This document shows, piece by piece, positions 3,031 through 12,146 of a stretch of 64,000 nt of DNA. The stretch's first letter is position 1, and every line of letters begins with the position of its first letter. The translations under genes and the position numbers were made by a program. The notes beneath the pieces are model-generated. The model did not search any database. It saw only the letters and a list, made by a program, of their open reading frames with translations, and was not told where the DNA came from. The stretch comes from an uncultured Solirubrobacterales bacterium (GTDB taxonomy: Bacteria > Actinomycetota > Thermoleophilia > Solirubrobacterales > Solirubrobacteraceae): NCBI GenBank assembly GCA_963718545.1, contig CAVQZO010000003.1, positions 591,187 to 655,186 on the forward strand, given 5' to 3'.

Positions 3031-4077
3031 TCAGGTGGTCAAGGTCACCTTGCTGAGCCCATGCGGCCGGTCGACGTCGACGCCGGCAAGCTCACCCAGC
3101 CGCAGAGCCGCCGCCTGTCCCGGAATCACGGCCAGCAGGGGCGCCAGCCACTCCGGAACCTGCGGAACAAGCACGCCAATGTCAGCTGCGCGCAAAAGGT
3201 CAGCGCGGTCGGTGACCGCGACCGTGAGACCGGAGCTGGCGCCGATCACTTCCAGATCACGGCGGTCCGGCTGGTCACGACCCGACGTGCCGATCAACCA
3301 CAGCGCCCCGGCCTTACTCAGCCCCGCGATCGGTCCGTGGATCAGGTCGGGCAACGAGAACGCCTCGGCCACCACACCGCCCAGCTCGCGGAGCTTCAAC
3401 GCAGTCTCGTATGCAGTTGCCATCTCCAGCCCGCGCCCCACAGCGGTAATCACACCGCAACGGGCCAGGCGGTCGAAGCGCCCACGCTCGCCCAGCTGAG
3501 ACGCGACCATCGACTCCACCAGGCCAGGCAGGGCCCCGAACCATTTGCGCCGATCGGCGTCCGGAGACAGGCACTCGGCGATCTGAGCCATCGCGTGCAG
3601 GGAGGCCAGGTAGGTCTTCGTGGCCGCCACGGAACGCTCCTGGCCGGCCAGCATCTCCACCACCACATCGGCCCGGTCGGCGAGCCGCGACTCCGGGTGG
3701 TTGGTGACAACCACGGTCGGGCGCCCCTGTTCAGCGGCCGCCTCGACGACCGAAGCGATGTCCGGGGAGCCCCCCGACTGGGAGATGGCTAGAACTGCGC
3801 CACGCGAAAGGAGCGGCGGCGAGGCGCCTCCGAACAGCCAGGGCGCGGCAAGGCCGACCGGAAGCCGGGCCTCCACCCCCAGCAGATATTGGGCGTACCG
3901 GGCGGCGTTGTCTGACGTCCCGCGGGCGACGATCATCAGGTAGTCGACGTCGCTTCGGCGCAGCAGCGCCGCCGCCTGCTCGGCGCTCCGCCAGCCCGGG
4001 CCCTCGCGGGAACCGAGCACCTCGGCCTGCTCGCGGATCTCCTGCTCCAGGTAGCTGGGTGTGGCATGACCAGGCAC
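3031..4077 (-). CDS. SIS-domain protein, GlmS C-terminal-like; probable glucosamine-6-phosphate deaminase (NagB-II type)
   Basis: ARGTSDNA, ISQSGGS, ATKTY, ALKLRE, HGP and terminal LSKVTLTT motifs; no glutaminase domain; divergent from a sugar ABC operon. Confidence 0.8.
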   Translation of the reverse strand: MPGHATPSYLEQEIREQAEVLGSREGPGWRSAEQAAALLRRSDVDYLMIVARGTSDNAARYAQYLLGVEARLPVGLAAPWLFGGASPPLLSRGAVLAISQSGGSPDIASVVEAAAEQGRPTVVVTNHPESRLADRADVVVEMLAGQERSVAATKTYLASLHAMAQIAECLSPDADRRKWFGALPGLVESMVASQLGERGRFDRLARCGVITAVGRGLEMATAYETALKLRELGGVVAEAFSLPDLIHGPIAGLSKAGALWLIGTSGRDQPDRRDLEVIGASSGLTVAVTDRADLLRAADIGVLVPQVPEWLAPLLAVIPGQAAALRLGELAGVDVDRPHGLSKVTLTT

Positions 4078-4169: not shown

Positions 4170-4184
4170 TAGGAAACCTTCCTA
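4170..4184. promoter_or_regulatory. CsnR-type ROK operator
   Basis: TAGGAAACCTTCCTA is a near-perfect palindrome, one mismatch from the Streptomyces CsnR box AGGAAANTTTCCT, just downstream of the -10. Confidence 0.75.
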
Positions 4185-4245: not shown

Positions 4246-5604
4246 ATGAGACGCGGTACGGCCGGCACAGTGGCGGTGGTCTTGGCGCTGGCGGTGGCTG
4301 CCTGTGGCGGCTCCTCCGGGGGAGGCTCCGGAGGCTCCGCCAAAGCGATTGCTCCTGCCACCTACAACGGCAAGCCGGTGACGATCACCTTCTGGAACCC
4401 GTTTACGGGCCGTGAGGAAGGCGTGATGAAGAGCGTCGTCGCCGGCTTCGAGAAGGCCAACCCGAACATCAAGGTGACCAGCCGCGGCGGGATCTCCGAC
4501 AGCAACATCATCGCGGCGATCCGCGGCGGGAGCCCGCCGGACCTGGCCATGTCCAACTCGGCCGACAACCTCGGCGAGTACTGCGGCACTGGCGCCTGGA
4601 TCAACCTCGGTTCCTACATCCAGCGCGACCAGGTCGACGTCAGCCAGTTCCCCAAGGCGGTCCAGGACTTCACCGCGTTCAACGGCGACCGGTGCGCGCT
4701 GCCGGACCTGGCCGACACCTACGGTCTCTACTACAACAAGGCGCTGCTGGCCAAGGCGCACATCACGAGCCTGCCCAAGACGTTCACCCAGCTGACGGCC
4801 GACGCCAAGAAGCTCACCCAGTTCAACCCCGACGGCTCGATCAAGGTGGCCGGCTTCGTGCCCACCAGCACGTTCTACGAGAATGCCGCCGCCCACTACG
4901 CGCCGCTGTGGGGCTTCCACTGGGTGCTTAACGGCAAGGCGGCGATGGGCACCGACCCCAACTGGGCCGCGTACCTGCGCTGGGAGAAGTCGCTGATCGA
5001 CTGGTATGGAGCCAGCAAGCTATCCCGCTTCCTGTCCGCCGCGGGCGAGGAGTTCTCGCCCACCAACGACTTCGAGGCGGGCAAGATCGCCATGCAGATC
5101 GACGGCGAATGGCGCACGCAGTTCATCAAGTCAGATCACGCGAAGATCACCTACGGCACGGCTCCCATGCCCGTCAACCCGGCTGACCCCTCGCTCTACG
5201 GCGGCGGCTACACGACCGGCAATGTGATGGGGATCCCCAAGGGGGCGGCGCACCCGGCGGCCGCGTGGCTGCTGGCCAAGTACCTGGCCACCAACGAGTC
5301 CGCGGTGGCGACATTCGCCAACGGGCTCGGGAACGTGCCCACGCTCACCTCGGCGCTGGGTGACCCCACGCTCACGAAGAACCCCGAGTTCGACACGTTC
5401 CTGAAGATCTTCGGGAATCCCAACACGGCCACCGACCCGATCACCGCGATCGGCTCGGCCAACCAGACGATGGAGGGCAACTGGCAGCAGAAGTGGGAGG
5501 CCGGCTCGATCTCCGCCGCCGGGCTTCCGTCGGCGCTGAAGAACCTGTCCCAGCAGATCAACGCCCAGGAAGCCAACTCCACCCAGGGCAGCGGCCCCCC
5601 GTGA
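4246..5604 (+). CDS. Sugar ABC transporter substrate-binding lipoprotein (CsnE-like)
   Basis: GGAGG RBS; lipobox LAVAAC; family-1 SBP features (ITFWNPF, PPDLA, LYYNKALL). Confidence 0.9.
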   Translation: MRRGTAGTVAVVLALAVAACGGSSGGGSGGSAKAIAPATYNGKPVTITFWNPFTGREEGVMKSVVAGFEKANPNIKVTSRGGISDSNIIAAIRGGSPPDLAMSNSADNLGEYCGTGAWINLGSYIQRDQVDVSQFPKAVQDFTAFNGDRCALPDLADTYGLYYNKALLAKAHITSLPKTFTQLTADAKKLTQFNPDGSIKVAGFVPTSTFYENAAAHYAPLWGFHWVLNGKAAMGTDPNWAAYLRWEKSLIDWYGASKLSRFLSAAGEEFSPTNDFEAGKIAMQIDGEWRTQFIKSDHAKITYGTAPMPVNPADPSLYGGGYTTGNVMGIPKGAAHPAAAWLLAKYLATNESAVATFANGLGNVPTLTSALGDPTLTKNPEFDTFLKIFGNPNTATDPITAIGSANQTMEGNWQQKWEAGSISAAGLPSALKNLSQQINAQEANSTQGSGPP

Positions 5605-5620
5605 TCAAAGGCCGGGCGGC

Positions 5621-6640
5621 GTGAGCGTCCTGCCGGTCAGGGCGGGCGAGGCGGCGCGCGCGCTGCCGCCGCTCTCGCCCGCGCGCAAGCAGGCCAGGCG
5701 CCGCGCGGGCTGGCGCCGGCGGCGCACGGTGCTCCTGTTCATGAGCCCGTGGATCGTCGGCTTCGCCGTGTTCTTCGGCTATCCGATGCTGGACAACCTG
5801 TACCTGTCGTTCAACCACTATGACCTGCTGTCCAGCCCGCGCTGGATCGGCCTGGCCAACTACAAGTACCTGTTCAGCGGTGACCAGGAGGTGTGGCCGG
5901 CGGTCCGGAACACGCTGTGGTTCCTGGGGATCGCCGTGCCCCTGCAGGTCCTGTTCGCGTTCGGCATCGCGATGATGGTCACCCGGGTCAAGCGCGGCGT
6001 GAGCATCTACCGCACGATCTTCTACCTACCGACGCTGGCCCCCACCGTGGCCGCCACGCTCGGCTTCGTGTTCATCTTCAATCCGGCCACGGGCCCCGTG
6101 AACAGCCTGCTCTCGAAGATCGGGGTCACCGGGCCCCTGTGGTTCCAGTCGCCAACCTGGGCCAAGCCGTCGCTGACCCTGCTCAGCCTGTGGGGGATCG
6201 GCAACGCGATGATCATCTTCCTGGCCGCCATCCTCGACGTCCCCGCCCAGTTGCACGAGGCGGCCGAGATCGACGGCGCCGGCGCCTTCAGGCGCCTCTG
6301 GCACGTGACGCTGCCCAGCATCAGCCCGGTGATCCTGTTCTCGATCGTGATCGCCGTGATCGCCGGGCTTCAGTACTTCGATCAGGCCTACGTCGCCAGC
6401 ACCGTGGCCGCCCCCGGCAGCCTGGGCAACGCGGGAGACAACTCCGCCATCAGCCTCGGCTACCCCCAGGGCTCGACCCTGTTCTACCCGCTGCTCCTCT
6501 ACCAACAGGGCTTCAGCTACTTCAACATGGGCTACGCCGCCGCCCTGTCGATGCTGCTGCTGGTCGTCTCGCTGGCCGTGACGCTGATCGTCCTGCGCAA
6601 CTCGCGCCGCTGGGTGTTCGTCCAAGGGGGAGCTAACTGA
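5621..6640 (+). CDS. Sugar ABC transporter permease
   Basis: Multiple TM segments; EAAEIDGA EAA motif; MGYAAALS. Confidence 0.92.
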   Translation: MSVLPVRAGEAARALPPLSPARKQARRRAGWRRRRTVLLFMSPWIVGFAVFFGYPMLDNLYLSFNHYDLLSSPRWIGLANYKYLFSGDQEVWPAVRNTLWFLGIAVPLQVLFAFGIAMMVTRVKRGVSIYRTIFYLPTLAPTVAATLGFVFIFNPATGPVNSLLSKIGVTGPLWFQSPTWAKPSLTLLSLWGIGNAMIIFLAAILDVPAQLHEAAEIDGAGAFRRLWHVTLPSISPVILFSIVIAVIAGLQYFDQAYVASTVAAPGSLGNAGDNSAISLGYPQGSTLFYPLLLYQQGFSYFNMGYAAALSMLLLVVSLAVTLIVLRNSRRWVFVQGGAN

Positions 6641-7545
6641 TGGCCACAGCCGTCGAGTTCCCCCAAACCCAGCCACCCCTCAAGCAGCCACTGGTCCGGC
6701 GCACAGTGCCCTGGCAGGTCAGGCGCCGGCGGCTGCTCGTCGCCACCGCCGAGCACAGCCTGCTGATCGTCCTGGCGATCATGTTCATCGCGCCGTTCGT
6801 GTTCATGCTGCTGACCGGGCTGATGACCAGCGCGCAGTCCCTGACGCCGCGCATCTGGCCCTCGCCGTTCGACCTCCACAACATCGTGCAGGTGTTCAAC
6901 ACCGCGCCGATGTTCCGTTACGCGACCAACACGTTCATGTACGCGGGACTGGCCACGCTCGGCCTCGTCCTCTCCAGCGTGCCGGTGGCCTACGCCCTGG
7001 CCTTCCTGCGCTGGCGGGGACGGAACCTGGCGTTCCTCGGCGTGCTCGTCTCGATGATGCTGCCGCCGCAGGTGACGGTCATCCCGGTCTACGTGATGTT
7101 CTCCCACCTGCATCTGGTCGGGACGATCTGGCCGCTGATCATCCCCAACTGGTTCGGCGACGCGTTCTCGATCTTCCTGCTGCGCCAGTTCTTCCTGACG
7201 ATCCCGTTCGAGTACGTCGACGCGGCGCGAATCGACGGCTGCGGGGAGTTCAGGATCATGCTCCAGGTGATCGCCCGGCTGGCCAAGCCGGCGATCGCCG
7301 CTGTGGCCCTGTTCAGCTTCCTGCTGTGCTGGAACGACTTCTGGGGCCCGCTGCTGTACACGCTGCCCAATCCGGCCCACTGGACGCTGTCGGTCGGCCT
7401 GGCCCAGTTCCGCAACCTGTACGAGGTCAACTGGAACCTGGTCATGGCCGGGACGGTCGTGTTCATGGCGCCGGTGATCATCCTGTTCTTCTTCGCCCAG
7501 AAGGCGTTCGTCGAGGGCATCACGCTGACGGGGGTGAAGGGATGA
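6640..7545 (+). CDS. Sugar ABC transporter permease
   Basis: DAARIDGC EAA loop; FLLRQFF; WNDFWGPL. Confidence 0.92.
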   Translation: MATAVEFPQTQPPLKQPLVRRTVPWQVRRRRLLVATAEHSLLIVLAIMFIAPFVFMLLTGLMTSAQSLTPRIWPSPFDLHNIVQVFNTAPMFRYATNTFMYAGLATLGLVLSSVPVAYALAFLRWRGRNLAFLGVLVSMMLPPQVTVIPVYVMFSHLHLVGTIWPLIIPNWFGDAFSIFLLRQFFLTIPFEYVDAARIDGCGEFRIMLQVIARLAKPAIAAVALFSFLLCWNDFWGPLLYTLPNPAHWTLSVGLAQFRNLYEVNWNLVMAGTVVFMAPVIILFFFAQKAFVEGITLTGVKG

Positions 7546-9893
7546 AGCTGGCGGTGATCGGCGCCGGTTCCACCTACACACCCGAGCTGGTGTCCGGCTT
7601 CATGCGCGAACGGGAGCGGATCGACCTGAGCGAGCTGGTGCTGCACGACATCGACCCCGAGCGCCGCGAGATCGTCGGCGGGCTGTCCCGGCGGATCCTC
7701 GAGCGCCAGGGCTACACCGGCGAGCTCGAGATCACCGACGACCTGGACCGCGCGCTCGAAGGCGCCGACGCGGTGCTCATCCAGATCCGGGTGGGCGGAC
7801 AGGCAGCCCGGCTGCACGACGAGACGATTCCGGCGGCGTGCGGATGCGTGGGCCAGGAGACGACCGGCGCCGGCGGTCTGGCCAAGGCGCTGCGCACGGT
7901 CCCGGTGGTGCTCGACATCGCCGCCCGGGCTCGCGCGCTGGCCGACCCCGACGCCTGGATCATCGACTTCACCAACCCGGTCGGGATCGTCACCCGCGCG
8001 CTGCTCGACGCCGGGCACCGCGCGGTCGGTCTGTGCAACGTGGCGATCAACTTCCAGCGCCAGATCGCCGCCCACCTGGACGTCGCACCCGACCGTGTCC
8101 TGGTCGATCAGGTCGGCCTCAACCACCTCACTTGGATCCGCGCGGTTCACCTCGACGGCCGCGACGTCCTGCCTGAGGTCCTCGACTCCTATGGCGACGC
8201 GCTCGCCCACGAGATCGGGCTGTCCCGGGCGCTGCTCGACCAGCTCGGGGCGATCCCGTCCTACTACCTGCGCTACTTCTACGCCGAGCGCGAGGTGCTC
8301 CAGGAGCAGCGCATGGGTCCGCCCCGGGCCAAGGTCGTGGCCGACATCGAGCGCCGGCTGCTGGACATGTACCGGGACCCGCAGCTCACGGAGAAGCCCG
8401 CCCTGCTCGAGCAGCGCGGCGGCGCCTTCTACAGCGAGGCGGCGATCCAGCTGGTCGCCTCGCTGACCTCCGACAGCGGCGACGCGCAGGTGGTGGACAT
8501 CCGCAACAACGGGGCGCTGGCCGGACTCGCCGACGACGACGTTGTCGAGGTGCCCGCCCGGATACGCGCCTCCGGACCGGTGCCGCTGCCCCAGCGTCCG
8601 CTGGCCCCGGAGCTGCTGGGACTGGTTCAGCACGTGGCCGCCTACGAGCGCCTGGCCGCCACCGCGGCCCGCTCAGGCGACCCGGAGGCGGCGCGGATCG
8701 CGCTGCTCTGCAACCCGCTGGTGCGCGACTGGCGGCTGGCCGACGGGATGCTCGGAGATCTGTTGCCCGAGTCGACGCCGCGTCGGGGCGGTCGTACCGG
8801 TGCCCGCGGCTTGGGGCACGCGGGCACCGGCTCACGCGGTGAGCTCGTGCTGGCGGTCGACGGAGGCAATGTCAAGACCGATCTGGCGCTCGTCGCCGCC
8901 GACGGCGGGCTGCTGTCGCTGGCCCGGGGTGGGCGCAGCTCGCCGCACCACCTGGGGCTGGAGGGCTGCGTCGAGGTGCTCCAAGCCCTGCTGGGCGAGG
9001 CCATGGCCCGGGCGGGCCTGGGCGGCGACCCGGTGACCGCGGCGCAGATCATGATCGCCGGCGCCGACCTCCCCGAGGAGCTGGAGGCACTCCGGGCGGC
9101 GATCGCCCCGCTGGGCTGGACCCAGCGGCTCACGGTCGACAATGACACGTTCGCTCTGCTGCGATCGGGTACGGAGCGCAGCTGGGGCGTGGCGGTGGTC
9201 TGCGGCGGCGGCATCAACTGCGTCGGTGTCGCCCCGGACGGACGCCATGCGCGGTTCCCGTCGCTGGGACCGATCAGCGGCGACTGGGGGGGCGGCGGCG
9301 ACGTCGGGATGGCGGCGCTGAGCGCTGCCGCCCGCAGCGCGGACGGCCGGGGTCCCAGTACGACCCTCCAGACCGCTGTTCCCGCCTATTTCGAGCTGCC
9401 CGACGTCGAGGCCGTGACCCGGAGCGTGCACCTCCGGGAGATGCCGTATGAGCGTCTGGCCGAACTGGCCCAGGTGGTGTTCGCCGAGGCCGGCTCCGAC
9501 CCCGTGGCGGAGGGGATCGTCAGCCGCTTGGCCGACGAGGTGGCGACGTTTGCTCGCGTGGCGCTGCTTCGCTTGGAGCTGACGGAGACCGATGCCCACG
9601 TCGTGCTGGGCGGCGGACTCCTGCGCGCGGCACCGGAACCGATCATCGAACGCATCAGCGACGGCGTGCGCGAGGTGGCCCCCAAAGCCCATGTCCGCCT
9701 GGCCGAGCGCGCCCCGATCGTGGGCGCCGCACTGCTCGGCCTGGATGAGCTGGGAGTGGACGGTGAGGCGGTGACCCGGGCCACCCGTGAGCTGCAGGCT
9801 GCGTTCGTCGAGATCGAGGGGAACGGCGCTCGAGCCTCGAATGGGCGGCTGGTATCGGTGGGTCCGGCGATGGAGGGAGACGGGAATGGCTGA
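7542..9893 (+). CDS. GH4 6-phospho-beta-glucosidase-like domain fused to a BadF/N-acetylglucosamine-kinase-like domain
   Basis: ATGA overlap start. GH4 motifs MKLAVIGAGSTYTPEL, GQETTGAGG, FTNP, GLCNV, GLNH. After a Gly/Arg linker come the kinase motifs LAVDGGNVKT, NDT, VVCGGGIN, GDWGGG, VLGGG, with no intervening stop. Confidence 0.88.
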   Translation: MKLAVIGAGSTYTPELVSGFMRERERIDLSELVLHDIDPERREIVGGLSRRILERQGYTGELEITDDLDRALEGADAVLIQIRVGGQAARLHDETIPAACGCVGQETTGAGGLAKALRTVPVVLDIAARARALADPDAWIIDFTNPVGIVTRALLDAGHRAVGLCNVAINFQRQIAAHLDVAPDRVLVDQVGLNHLTWIRAVHLDGRDVLPEVLDSYGDALAHEIGLSRALLDQLGAIPSYYLRYFYAEREVLQEQRMGPPRAKVVADIERRLLDMYRDPQLTEKPALLEQRGGAFYSEAAIQLVASLTSDSGDAQVVDIRNNGALAGLADDDVVEVPARIRASGPVPLPQRPLAPELLGLVQHVAAYERLAATAARSGDPEAARIALLCNPLVRDWRLADGMLGDLLPESTPRRGGRTGARGLGHAGTGSRGELVLAVDGGNVKTDLALVAADGGLLSLARGGRSSPHHLGLEGCVEVLQALLGEAMARAGLGGDPVTAAQIMIAGADLPEELEALRAAIAPLGWTQRLTVDNDTFALLRSGTERSWGVAVVCGGGINCVGVAPDGRHARFPSLGPISGDWGGGGDVGMAALSAAARSADGRGPSTTLQTAVPAYFELPDVEAVTRSVHLREMPYERLAELAQVVFAEAGSDPVAEGIVSRLADEVATFARVALLRLELTETDAHVVLGGGLLRAAPEPIIERISDGVREVAPKAHVRLAERAPIVGAALLGLDELGVDGEAVTRATRELQAAFVEIEGNGARASNGRLVSVGPAMEGDGNG

Positions 9894-10977
9894 GGTCCGC
9901 TTCGAGCAGGCCACGCGGATCTTCCGCGGCAACGAGCTGGCGGCCGTGGACCAGCTCGATCTGACCTTGCAGGATGGCGAGCTGCTGGTGCTGGTCGGGC
10001 CCTCGGGGTCGGGCAAGTCGACCGCCCTGCGGATGCTGGCCGGCCTCGAGGAAGTGGACGCCGGCGCGGTCTACATCGGCGAGCGCGACGTCACCGACCT
10101 GCCGCCCAAGCGCCGCGACGTGGCCATGGTGTTCCAGAACTACGCCCTGTACCCCTACCTGACCGTCCGGGCGAACGTGGGGTTCCCGCTGAAGATGGCC
10201 GGCGTCGCCAAGCCCGAGCGCGAGCGCCGGGTGGCCGAGGCGGCTGAGCTCCTGGGGCTCACGCCGCTGCTCGACCGCAAGCCGGCTCAGCTGTCGGGCG
10301 GCGAGCGCCAGCGGACCGCGATGGGCCGCGCGATCGTCCGCAACCCGCAGGTGTTCCTGATGGACGAGCCGCTGTCCAACCTCGACGCCAAGCTGCGGGT
10401 GAAGATGCGGGTGGACATCGCAGCGCTGCAGCGCAAGCTTGGCGTGACCATGCTGTACGTGACCCACGATCAGGTCGAGGCGATGACCATGGGGCACCGC
10501 GTGGCCGTCCTGCACCAGGGCCGCCTTCAGCAGTGCGGGCCGCCCCGGGAGCTCTACAACCATCCGGCCAACATGTTCGTGGCCGGATTCATCGGCTCGC
10601 CGGCCATGAACCTGATCCCGGCCCGGCTGAACGGGGACGGGGTAGCCGAGGTATGCGGCATCCGTCTTGCGCTGCCCCGGGATACCGTCGCGTCGGCGGG
10701 CGAGCGCGGCCTGCACGAGGTGATGGTGGGGCTGCGCCCGGAGTCCCTGGAGATGAACGGCGGCGAGGGGATCAGTGCCGAAGTCGAGGTGGTGGAGGAG
10801 CTCGGTGCCGACGCCTACGCGTTCTGCAACGCCCGGCTGCCGGACGGCGAGACCAAGCTGATCGCGCGCACCGACTGGCGACAGCCGCCCAACCCGGGCA
10901 CCCGGGTCCACCTGTCCCCCACGGCGTCCGAAGCCCACGTCTTCGACCCCACCAGCGGCGAGCGCCTCGGTAGCTAG
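9886..10977 (+). CDS. msiK: Sugar ABC transporter ATP-binding protein (MsiK/MalK-like)
   Basis: Walker A GPSGSGKST, LSGGERQR signature, FLMDEPLSNLD, FIGSPAMN. Confidence 0.9.
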   Translation: MAEVRFEQATRIFRGNELAAVDQLDLTLQDGELLVLVGPSGSGKSTALRMLAGLEEVDAGAVYIGERDVTDLPPKRRDVAMVFQNYALYPYLTVRANVGFPLKMAGVAKPERERRVAEAAELLGLTPLLDRKPAQLSGGERQRTAMGRAIVRNPQVFLMDEPLSNLDAKLRVKMRVDIAALQRKLGVTMLYVTHDQVEAMTMGHRVAVLHQGRLQQCGPPRELYNHPANMFVAGFIGSPAMNLIPARLNGDGVAEVCGIRLALPRDTVASAGERGLHEVMVGLRPESLEMNGGEGISAEVEVVEELGADAYAFCNARLPDGETKLIARTDWRQPPNPGTRVHLSPTASEAHVFDPTSGERLGS

Positions 10978-10982
10978 CCCCT

Positions 10983-12146
10983 ATGACGGCCACCTCCTCT
11001 GCGCGCCCGGCCATGCTGCGGGCGCTCAACGAACGCACCGTGCTCGACGCGATCCGGGCCGACGCGCCGATCTCCCGAGCCGAGATCTCGCGGCGCGTGG
11101 GGATCTCCAAGCCCACGGTCTCGCTGGCCCTGCGCTCGCTGGTCGAGGCCAGCCTGGTGCGCGAGGTGGAGGCTTCCGGCCAGCGCGGCCGGTACGGGGC
11201 CACGCTGTTCGAGGCTGTTCCAGAGGCCCGGCTGGTGCTCGGACTTGACGTCGGGGCGCGCTTCCTGCGCGGAGCCATCTGCGATCTGGATGGCCGGATC
11301 CGGGCTCGTCAGGACATCGAGACGGCCGGCGCCTCCGCCGGTCAGCTGCTGGAGACGTGCACCGAGCTGCGCGGACGGCTGGCCGCCGACAGCGGGCTGG
11401 CCATGGAGGCCATCGACGGCGCGGTGATCGGGGTGCCCGGGGTGGTCGACCCGGACAGGGGTCGCGTGGGCCTGGCCGAGAACATTCCCGGCCTGGAGGG
11501 GATGCGGTTCGGCACGGATCTGCGCGCTCGGCTCGGCGTGGAGGTGACGGTTCAGAACGACATCAACCTGGCCGCGGTCGGGGAGCGGTCACGCGGCGTC
11601 GCGCGCGGAGTGGAGAACTTCGCGTTTCTGTCCGTGGGCACGGGGCTCGGCGCCGGGCTGGTGCTGCGCGGCGAGGTCGTCTCGGGCCATCGCGGCGCGG
11701 CCGGCGAGCTCGATTTCGCCCGGGCCGCCGAGGACCGCGCGGCCGACGATCCCTGCGCTCCGGCTCTGTCCGCGCTCGCGAGCCGGCTGGCTGCCGAGGA
11801 CGGTGCGAGCAGCCTCGAACCGCCGTTCGGCGTGCCGGCGGTGTTCGGGGGCGCCCGCGCCGGTGATCCGGTGGCCCGGCGGGTGGTGGCGGAGGCGGCC
11901 CGGCGGATCGTCGTGCACATCCTGCCGATCGCGGCCGTGGCCGACGTCGAGCTGGTCGTCCTTGGGGGCGGGATCGGCGCCAACGGCGATCTCCTGCTTG
12001 ATCCGATCCGCGGGCTGCTGGCCGAGCAACTGCCGTTCCCGCCCCGGGTGGAGGTCTCGATGCTCGGGGACGCGGCCGTCCTGACCGGCGCCCTGGCGGT
12101 CGGACTGGCCTCGGCGCTGGAGAACGCATTTCTGGACCGGGGTTAG
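10983..12146 (+). CDS. ROK-family transcriptional repressor (CsnR-like)
   Basis: N-terminal HTH (ISRAEISRRVGISKPTVS); GVPG, NDINLAA, GTGLGAG and GAAGE ROK motifs. Confidence 0.92.
   Translation: MTATSSARPAMLRALNERTVLDAIRADAPISRAEISRRVGISKPTVSLALRSLVEASLVREVEASGQRGRYGATLFEAVPEARLVLGLDVGARFLRGAICDLDGRIRARQDIETAGASAGQLLETCTELRGRLAADSGLAMEAIDGAVIGVPGVVDPDRGRVGLAENIPGLEGMRFGTDLRARLGVEVTVQNDINLAAVGERSRGVARGVENFAFLSVGTGLGAGLVLRGEVVSGHRGAAGELDFARAAEDRAADDPCAPALSALASRLAAEDGASSLEPPFGVPAVFGGARAGDPVARRVVAEAARRIVVHILPIAAVADVELVVLGGGIGANGDLLLDPIRGLLAEQLPFPPRVEVSMLGDAAVLTGALAVGLASALENAFLDRG

Follow-up and report, generated by a model that had tools for sequence, protein, structure and literature searches.

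The 64,000-nucleotide stretch of DNA analyzed here (the window; positions 591,187 to 655,186 of contig CAVQZO010000003.1, from an uncultured soil actinobacterium of the family Solirubrobacteraceae) contains a gene in which csnH, encoding a glycoside hydrolase of family 4 (GH4), and csnK, encoding a BadF-type sugar kinase, are fused in frame, an arrangement that is real and has been inherited vertically. Published accounts of the actinobacterial csn cluster, which serves the uptake of chitosan oligosaccharides, list an ATP-binding cassette (ABC) transporter for glucosamine (GlcN) oligosaccharides together with a GH4 hydrolase and what is called a "putative saccharide/oligosaccharide kinase" (PMC6097792, PMC5635096). 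The best overall explanation, to which we assign a probability of roughly 60%, is that the inherited fusion encodes a bifunctional enzyme in which the kinase acts first and the GH4 half second. The gene pair is a known one; what is new is its fused architecture, within an established kind of system. Fused proteins are already present in public databases, where they appear as "6-phospho-beta-glucosidase" or "BadF/BadG/BcrA/BcrD ATPase family protein," yet they are apparently undescribed; the literature was searched for a GH4-BadF fusion, and none was found. The fused gene and its parts are as follows.

7542 to 9893, plus strand: fused csnH-csnK gene encoding the 783-residue protein P0001 (single open reading frame, three Pfam domains over their cut-offs, AlphaFold2 model).
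7542 to 8756, plus strand: GH4 half, residues 1 to 405, assigned to the 6-phospho-beta-glucosidase branch (PDB matches, Foldseek, motifs).
8757 to 8840, plus strand: Gly/Arg-rich linker, residues 406 to 433 (predicted local distance difference test [pLDDT], codon-position GC content, comparison with the split relative L093).
8841 to 9821, plus strand: BadF/NAGK-type (ASKHA) sugar kinase half, residues 434 to 760 (PF01869, matches to MurK and NAGK, Foldseek).

Translation of positions 7542 to 9893 of the plus strand revealed 783 codons without an internal stop. The ATG initiation codon overlaps the stop codon of the upstream permease gene (ATGA), and the TGA stop codon is located at positions 9891 to 9893. 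The earlier note had proposed, from the letters alone, a 783-residue open reading frame with intact GH4 and BadF-type halves joined by a stop-free linker, and the Pfam, motif, and translation analyses agree with this description, the linker comprising 28 residues, including 9 Gly and 5 Arg. The GC contents at codon positions 1, 2, and 3 were 0.78, 0.45, and 0.93 in the GH4 half and 0.80, 0.51, and 0.88, in the identical frame, in the kinase half, indicating that a single reading frame runs through both halves on either side of the linker, in which the profile was flat (0.75, 0.79, and 0.75). The AlphaFold2 model of P0001 (mean pLDDT of 81) contained two confident folded domains, with pLDDT values below 50 at residues 410 to 432 and 761 to 783; the linker is thus predicted to be disordered.

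The two Pfam domains of GH4 enzymes, Glyco_hydro_4 (PF02056; residues 2 to 180, 161.7 bits, cut-off 23.2) and Glyco_hydro_4C (PF11975; residues 191 to 394, 154.8 bits, cut-off 24.1), were both detected above their gathering scores, in keeping with membership of the first half in this family. Alignment to BglT and 1S6Y located the motifs GxGS, Q-I-R-V-G-G, GQETTG, FTNP, GLCN, GLNH, SYY, and RGG..YS, with the residues G7/G9/S10, R83, Q105/E106, N145, C165/N166, H195, Y241/Y242, R262, and R292. With the exception of one row gapped at the N terminus (G7 to S10), none of these residues varies in 31 fused forms, and nearly all of 95 split forms keep them. GH4 enzymes are marked by the N-terminal GxGS dinucleotide motif, by the Cys and His residues of GLCN and GLNH at the metal site, and by the Tyr of the SYY motif. 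The conserved arginines R83, R262, and R292 are no more than candidates for the binding of a 6-phosphate.

In comparisons with proteins of known structure, the GH4 half aligned over its full length with 5C3M (E value of 3e-94), 1S6Y (2e-92), and BglT (4.5e-64), with identities of 42% to the Geobacillus proteins 5C3M and 1S6Y and 35% to Thermotoga BglT. Matches to 6-phospho-alpha enzymes had E values of 1e-33 to 1e-37, and AglA, which is not phospho-specific, was aligned only partially (E value of 1e-12), other non-phospho GH4 enzymes giving partial matches that were no stronger. Foldseek returned template modeling (TM) scores of 0.89 to 0.92 and ranked the PDB relatives as in the sequence search. 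These comparisons place the GH4 half in the 6-phospho-beta-glucosidase branch, together with BglT, LicH/Gan4C, and ChbF. AglA, alpha-glucuronidase, and LplD are GH4 enzymes without phospho-specificity, and the view of the earlier note that GH4 enzymes need a phosphorylated substrate therefore does not hold for the entire family. It stands for the characterized members of the branch (PMC10628242, PMC12791066), since BglT and GlvA require 6-phospho substrates (PMC10628242) and glucosamine 6-phosphate (GlcN-6P) glycosides are cleaved by the E. coli GH4 enzyme (PMC12791066).

The second half contains a BcrAD_BadFG domain (PF01869; residues 439 to 733, 75.5 bits, cut-off 31.5) together with the phosphate-1 (DGGxxKT), catalytic (ND), phosphate-2 (GGG(I)N), and adenosine (GGG) motifs, as found in BadF/BcrAD/NAGK-type members of the ASKHA superfamily. 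The corresponding residues D440, G442, K445, T446, N534, D535, G555, G557, G580, D581, and G690 to G692 do not vary among the 31 fused forms and are kept in nearly all of the 95 split ones. The closest matches of known structure were MurK (8ZO3; E value of 4e-24, Foldseek TM score of 0.89) and human NAGK (E value of 3e-9; 2CH5, TM score of 0.70). An NCBIfam scan found an equivalog for neither half of P0001; for the kinase half, the best of the models for NagK, MurK, and GlcN kinase, NagK_SO3507, scored 56 bits for a cut-off of 370. At residue 582 (window positions ~9285 to 9287), the sugar-site sequence GDEGS of MurK and NAGK reads GDWGG in P0001, and the Trp residue is present in 31 of 31 fused forms and in 90 of 95 split CsnK orthologues. 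On the basis of this distribution, it may be a specificity marker of the CsnK-type group of kinases. Since all catalytic motifs are kept in both halves, the product of the fused gene is predicted to be a bifunctional enzyme.

The genome to which the window belongs is a metagenome-assembled genome of 3.86 Mb in 4 contigs, 95% complete and with a GC content of 72%. Because it was probably assembled from long reads, as is typical of assemblies with so few contigs, an indel error merging two adjacent genes had to be considered as a serious rival explanation. Errors of this kind do occur at this locus: it is broken into many frames in the same-genus genomes G003, G004, and G020 (loci L008 to L010), and the database "fusions" P0032 to P0035, P0048, P0050, P0063, and P0107 have garbled GH4 C termini resembling read-through of a frameshift. 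All of these resemble indel errors of long-read assemblies. The fused gene of the window differs from them in several respects. The independent metagenome proteins P0002 (JGI) and P0003 (Logan), 85 to 86% identical to P0001 overall (94% and 91%, respectively, in the GH4 half and ~80% in the kinase half), have the same in-frame junction and a 28-residue linker with the motif "RG(L/F)GHA.TGS" of P0001. The fused gene and its split counterparts differ by a net 16 nucleotides, which is not the slip of a single base or homopolymer, fused genes are also present in fragmented assemblies (three genomes of the genus, with 110 to 370 contigs), and one identical fused protein, P0128, was seen on 13 Logan contigs, with a cluster mate, HEY3943811.1, in an NCBI Solirubrobacteraceae genome. 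Neither a stop codon nor a frameshift was present in the linker of any of the relatives sharing the junction, which was the observation that, according to the earlier note, would have exposed an assembly artifact. Together, these results largely refute an artifact, which we consider extremely improbable, and indicate that the fusion is real.

The earlier note had described csnH and csnK as separate adjacent genes in Streptomyces, and this arrangement extends to nearly all other relatives at the loci compared (PMC6097792, PMC5635096). The GH4 and kinase proteins are encoded by two genes in all 80 species genomes of the related-locus comparison. In these split relatives, the kinase gene is in the -1 frame relative to the GH4 gene, whose stop codon overlaps the kinase start codon (ATGA or GTGA). 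The overlap was observed across Streptomyces, Kribbella, Actinomadura, Gaiellaceae, and Solirubrobacteraceae (loci L002 to L121; for example, L093:2700-2800 and L014:8215-8290), and this pattern of gene boundaries points to a strikingly conserved translational coupling of csnH and csnK. In comparison to L093, the nearest split relative among those compared, the window protein has kept the GH4 tail (common "RGG-RTGA" stretch), which is followed by ~11 extra residues and then by the kinase start "ELVLAVDGG," for a net gain of 16 nucleotides; the first part of the linker and the C-terminal end of the L093 GH4 protein are homologous. The fusion would have arisen in an ancestor containing two genes with stop and start codons overlapping by 4 nucleotides, in which a small rearrangement in the GH4 tail would have brought the kinase into frame, the former tail becoming the disordered linker of ~28 residues.

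The search for other GH4-BadF fusions suggested in the earlier note was productive, since it led, in addition to P0002 and P0003, to six genomes of the same GTDB genus and to ~28 clusters of fused proteins in all. Among the 345 other species genomes of the genus that were searched, 74 contained the locus, and six (G453, G631, G514, G593, G680, and G494) crossed the junction without a stop codon, with open reading frames matching or resembling the fused clusters P0008, P0014, P0024, P0021, and P0025. The fused form is thus the minority state, the split form being present in ~66 of the 75 locus-bearing species of the genus. No further fused form was found in a family-wide draw of 400 genomes, the fused species coming to light only when the genus was searched in full. 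Two unpublished genomes, G274 and G534, are counted in these genus and family tallies but support none of the claims made.

Trees of the GH4 part, of the kinase part, and of their concatenation were built from 31 fused and 95 split forms, limited to rows in which each half gave a near-full single match; the sampling was uneven, with fused forms drawn from a protein database and split forms from the genomes of species. An all-fused clade of 24 clusters, including P0001, was recovered in the three trees (FastTree support of 0.81 for the concatenation and 0.975 for the GH4 part; SH-like approximate likelihood ratio test value of 62 in an IQ-TREE quick tree). Fitch parsimony required six state changes. 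This value is an upper bound on the number of independent fusions, because a single clade for P0001 to P0028 was not rejected by the approximately unbiased (AU) test (p-AU of 0.44). A single clade for all 31 fused forms was rejected by the same test (log-likelihood difference of 962, p-AU of 5e-64). The safe reading is that of one old fusion in the Solirubrobacteraceae lineage, with up to three separate Gaiellaceae-like cases (P0029 to P0031), although the latter are single sequences that could be errors or artifacts.

A small frame-restoring indel in the GH4 tail might also have yielded a harmless, selectively near-neutral fusion, from which little could be concluded about channeling. We regard this as a real possibility, though not the probable one. 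The ancestral overlap is found everywhere, fused forms are known from beyond the main clade, the split form is retained by most species of the genus, and the linker sequence appears unconstrained: the linkers of the main clade (25 to 35 residues) are rich in Ala, Arg, Gly, and Pro and can hardly be aligned. Against near-neutrality, the fused state persisted while the kinase half diverged to ~56 to 60% identity within the main clade, and every change of linker length among fused relatives keeps the frame. This combination indicates that the fused state has been maintained, by selection acting at least against breaking the fusion. Among the fused proteins, P0023 (a JGI metagenome protein of 828 residues) has a 68-residue linker containing a tandem peptide repeat with RDSADEPAS-like units. 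The linker therefore tolerates large in-frame expansion.

The fused gene is embedded in an operon with the order csnEFG-(H-K)-msiK-ROK, whose genes are packed or overlapping and which is preceded by a divergently transcribed gene. The surrounding features are as follows.

3031 to 4077, minus strand: divergent SIS-domain gene, NagB-II-like, candidate GlcN-6P deaminase (two Pfam SIS domains).
4171 to 4183, no strand assigned: palindrome AGGAAACCTTCCT, candidate CsnR operator (fit to AGG-N7-CCT).
4246 to 5604, plus strand: CsnE-like ABC solute-binding lipoprotein (Pfam SBP_bac_1 and SBP_bac_8).
5621 to 6640, plus strand: CsnF/G-like ABC permease (Pfam BPD_transp_1).
6640 to 7545, plus strand: CsnF/G-like ABC permease (Pfam BPD_transp_1).
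9886 to 10977, plus strand: MsiK/UgpC-type ABC ATPase (NCBIfam UgpC subfamily, 434 bits; Pfam ABC_tran, OB_MalK, and TOBE_2).
10983 to 12146, plus strand: CsnR-like ROK-family regulator with an N-terminal winged helix (Pfam ROK and HTH).

The region extending from position 4246 to 12146 has the gene content of csnREFGHK, with a ROK repressor, a binding protein, two permeases, a GH4 enzyme, and a saccharide kinase. The solute-binding gene starts with an ATG at position 4246 preceded by GGAGGGAG, and the ATG of the MsiK-type gene (position 9886) overlaps the stop codon of the fused gene by 8 nucleotides. The SIS-domain protein scored 164 bits against NCBIfam NagB_SO3506, below the equivalog cut-off of 430. 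The sequence AGGAAACCTTCCT is a perfect 5+5 palindrome located in the AT-rich divergent promoter region between the NagB-II-like and binding-protein genes. It fits AGG-N7-CCT, the form quoted for the CsnR operator (bioRxiv 10.1101/2023.09.20.558697), a loose pattern that turns up in the window about as often as chance predicts (15 found, 15.5 expected). The palindrome is a candidate for a CsnR-type operator outside the Streptomycetales. Upstream of the locus, positions 71 to 2257 of the plus strand encode a 728-residue protein with IPT/TIG domains.

In the explanation that we favor, an ABC importer composed of the binding protein, the two permeases, and the MsiK-type ATPase would take up unphosphorylated GlcN di- and trisaccharides, and the kinase half would use ATP to phosphorylate O6 of the non-reducing GlcN residue. 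The GH4 half, depending on NAD+ and Mn2+, would then split the GlcN-6P glycoside into GlcN-6P and GlcN, the former passing to the neighboring NagB-II-like deaminase. The kinase would take the place of the phosphotransferase system (PTS) that primes the GH4 enzyme ChbF in E. coli. The fusion would ensure 1:1 amounts and the proximity of both activities, and true channeling between the halves is possible. The fusion itself indicates a functional linkage and says nothing on reaction order or channeling. The reading given in the earlier note is supported in part: the coupling of phosphorylation to hydrolysis through channeling, which it put forward, is an inference, as is the order of the two reactions. 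The idea that the kinase acts first is not new, since CsnK was already labeled a "putative oligosaccharide kinase" (PMC5635096).

Kinase first is favored over the reverse order, in which the GH4 half would cleave unphosphorylated GlcN oligosaccharides and the kinase would then make GlcN-6P from the freed GlcN, an order that we consider unlikely. The preference follows from the assignment of the GH4 half, which is far nearer to 6-phospho-beta-glucosidases than to non-phospho GH4 enzymes, to a branch whose characterized members need the 6-phosphate, and from the cleavage of GlcN-6P glycosides by the chitobiose GH4 enzyme of E. coli. It follows also from the mode of uptake, which relies on an ABC system in a genome, 95% complete, in which a search for the PTS component EIIC (PF02378) was negative, and from the precedent of BglK, a kinase that produces 6-phospho-beta-glucosides (PMC10628242). 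Several observations weigh against our explanation as a whole or in part. The nearest solved kinases, MurK and NAGK, act on monosaccharides, and hydrolysis before phosphorylation was assumed in the rokL6 preprint (bioRxiv 10.1101/2023.09.20.558697); both points favor the reverse order, as does the existence of GH4 enzymes acting on unphosphorylated sugars (AglA [1OBB], alpha-glucuronidase, and LplD), which are weak matches to the GH4 half of the window. An EI-like gene is present in the genome at C3:901551-901922 (L142), so that a PTS remnant is conceivable. The predicted TM score of 0.59 of the AlphaFold2 model and the disordered linker do not indicate a fixed interface or orientation of the two domains, and the 4-nucleotide overlap combined with the paucity of stop codons at 72% GC makes a fusion mutationally easy; both favor a near-neutral fusion. 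Finally, a search of the same genome for a GH46 chitosanase gene was negative, so that the substrate may not be derived from chitosan.

This last point bears on a further alternative, namely, that the same bifunctional enzyme acts on a different beta-linked disaccharide, for example cellobiose, gentiobiose, or a dimer combining GlcN and N-acetylglucosamine (GlcNAc), instead of chitosan oligomers. The low identities of the binding protein (35% to that of a Streptomyces fildesensis csn-type cluster) and of the regulator (31% to the ROK regulator leading the Streptomyces cluster) would be compatible with a different sugar, and Gan4C, the nearest solved GH4 enzyme, comes from a galactan cluster. 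The gene order, however, matches csnEFGHK, the GH4 enzyme and the kinase are orthologues of the paired Streptomyces proteins and fall in the same tree, and the CsnR-box-like palindrome is present, as is the NagB-II-like neighbor, which points to an amino sugar. Another substrate thus appears quite unlikely, and the NagB-II-like gene, the ROK regulator, and the palindrome argue for an amino-sugar context. The organism may scavenge oligomers released by the chitosanases of other organisms. A search for GH75 gave no match in this genome and none in control genomes either and is hence uninformative.

Similar to the Streptomyces csnREFGHK cluster, which is led by csnR (SCO2657), the operon of the window encodes an orthologous GH4 enzyme and BadF-type kinase (~60% and ~47% identity, respectively), a binding protein, two permeases, and a ROK regulator, and it has a candidate CsnR-type palindrome. 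The identities of 35% and 31% given above for the binding protein and the regulator refer to the Streptomyces locus L057, in which H and K are separate genes and the order is csnR-E-F-G-H-K, as published. In the window, by contrast, H and K form one polypeptide, the ROK gene is at the 3' rather than the 5' end, and the MsiK-type ATPase gene lies inside the operon. The host also differs, as it belongs to the Solirubrobacteraceae (Thermoleophilia) and GH46 was not found in its genome. The Streptomyces CsnK orthologue (L057:8287-9252) is a BadF/BcrAD-type ATPase by Pfam and not a ROK-family kinase, the family to which CsnK was attributed in a preprint (bioRxiv 10.1101/2023.09.20.558697).

E. coli ChbF, which acts with the PTS ChbBCA and the deacetylase ChbG, is also a GH4 enzyme of the 6-phospho-beta-glucosidase branch cleaving GlcN-6P glycosides (PMC12791066), and its chemistry is that proposed for the GH4 half of the window. 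The phosphate originates from PTS uptake in E. coli, whereas it would be supplied by a covalently attached ATP-dependent kinase in the window system, which has ABC uptake and for which EIIC was not found. The logic of a kinase priming a glycosidase is shared with Klebsiella pneumoniae, in which the ATP-dependent kinase BglK makes 6-phospho-beta-glucosides for cleavage by a phospho-beta-glucosidase (PMC10628242), but BglK is of the ROK family rather than BadF-type, the two proteins are separate, and the sugars acted on are glucosides instead of glucosaminides. Geobacillus Gan4C (5C3M), 1S6Y, and Thermotoga maritima BglT (1UP4/6/7) align over the full length of the GH4 half with the conserved motifs kept, although they are stand-alone proteins of ~410 to 450 residues without a kinase domain. 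Likewise, MurK (8ZO3) and human NAGK (2CH5) have the fold and the ATP and catalytic motifs in common with the kinase half, but they are monosaccharide kinases with only 27% and 20% identity, respectively, and with GDEGS in place of GDWGG.

Pairs of genes overlapping by 4 nucleotides in high-GC genomes are a ready source both of real fusions and of look-alike frameshift artifacts in databases, and fused architectures in long-read assembly data call for a check of the junction. A stably inherited CsnH-CsnK fusion provides Rosetta-stone evidence for the joint action of both enzymes. This matters for the source of the phosphorylated substrate in ABC-importing bacteria without a matching PTS, in which GH4 phospho-glycosidases are common, and for the csn literature, which is divided between an "oligosaccharide kinase" in one paper and hydrolysis by CsnH followed by phosphorylation by CsnK in another. 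With the fusion, one protein suffices for direct assays of reaction order and channeling. In its strongest form, which we consider improbable, the fused protein would be a self-priming glycosidase catalyzing the ATP-dependent hydrolysis of unphosphorylated GlcN oligosaccharides, with a 6'-phospho intermediate that the kinase site hands over directly to the site of GH4 cleavage. If so, the occurrence of fusions in more than one lineage would imply that unfused CsnH and CsnK also form a physical complex throughout the Actinomycetota, and the manner in which PTS-independent bacteria feed GH4 phospho-glycosidases would be settled.

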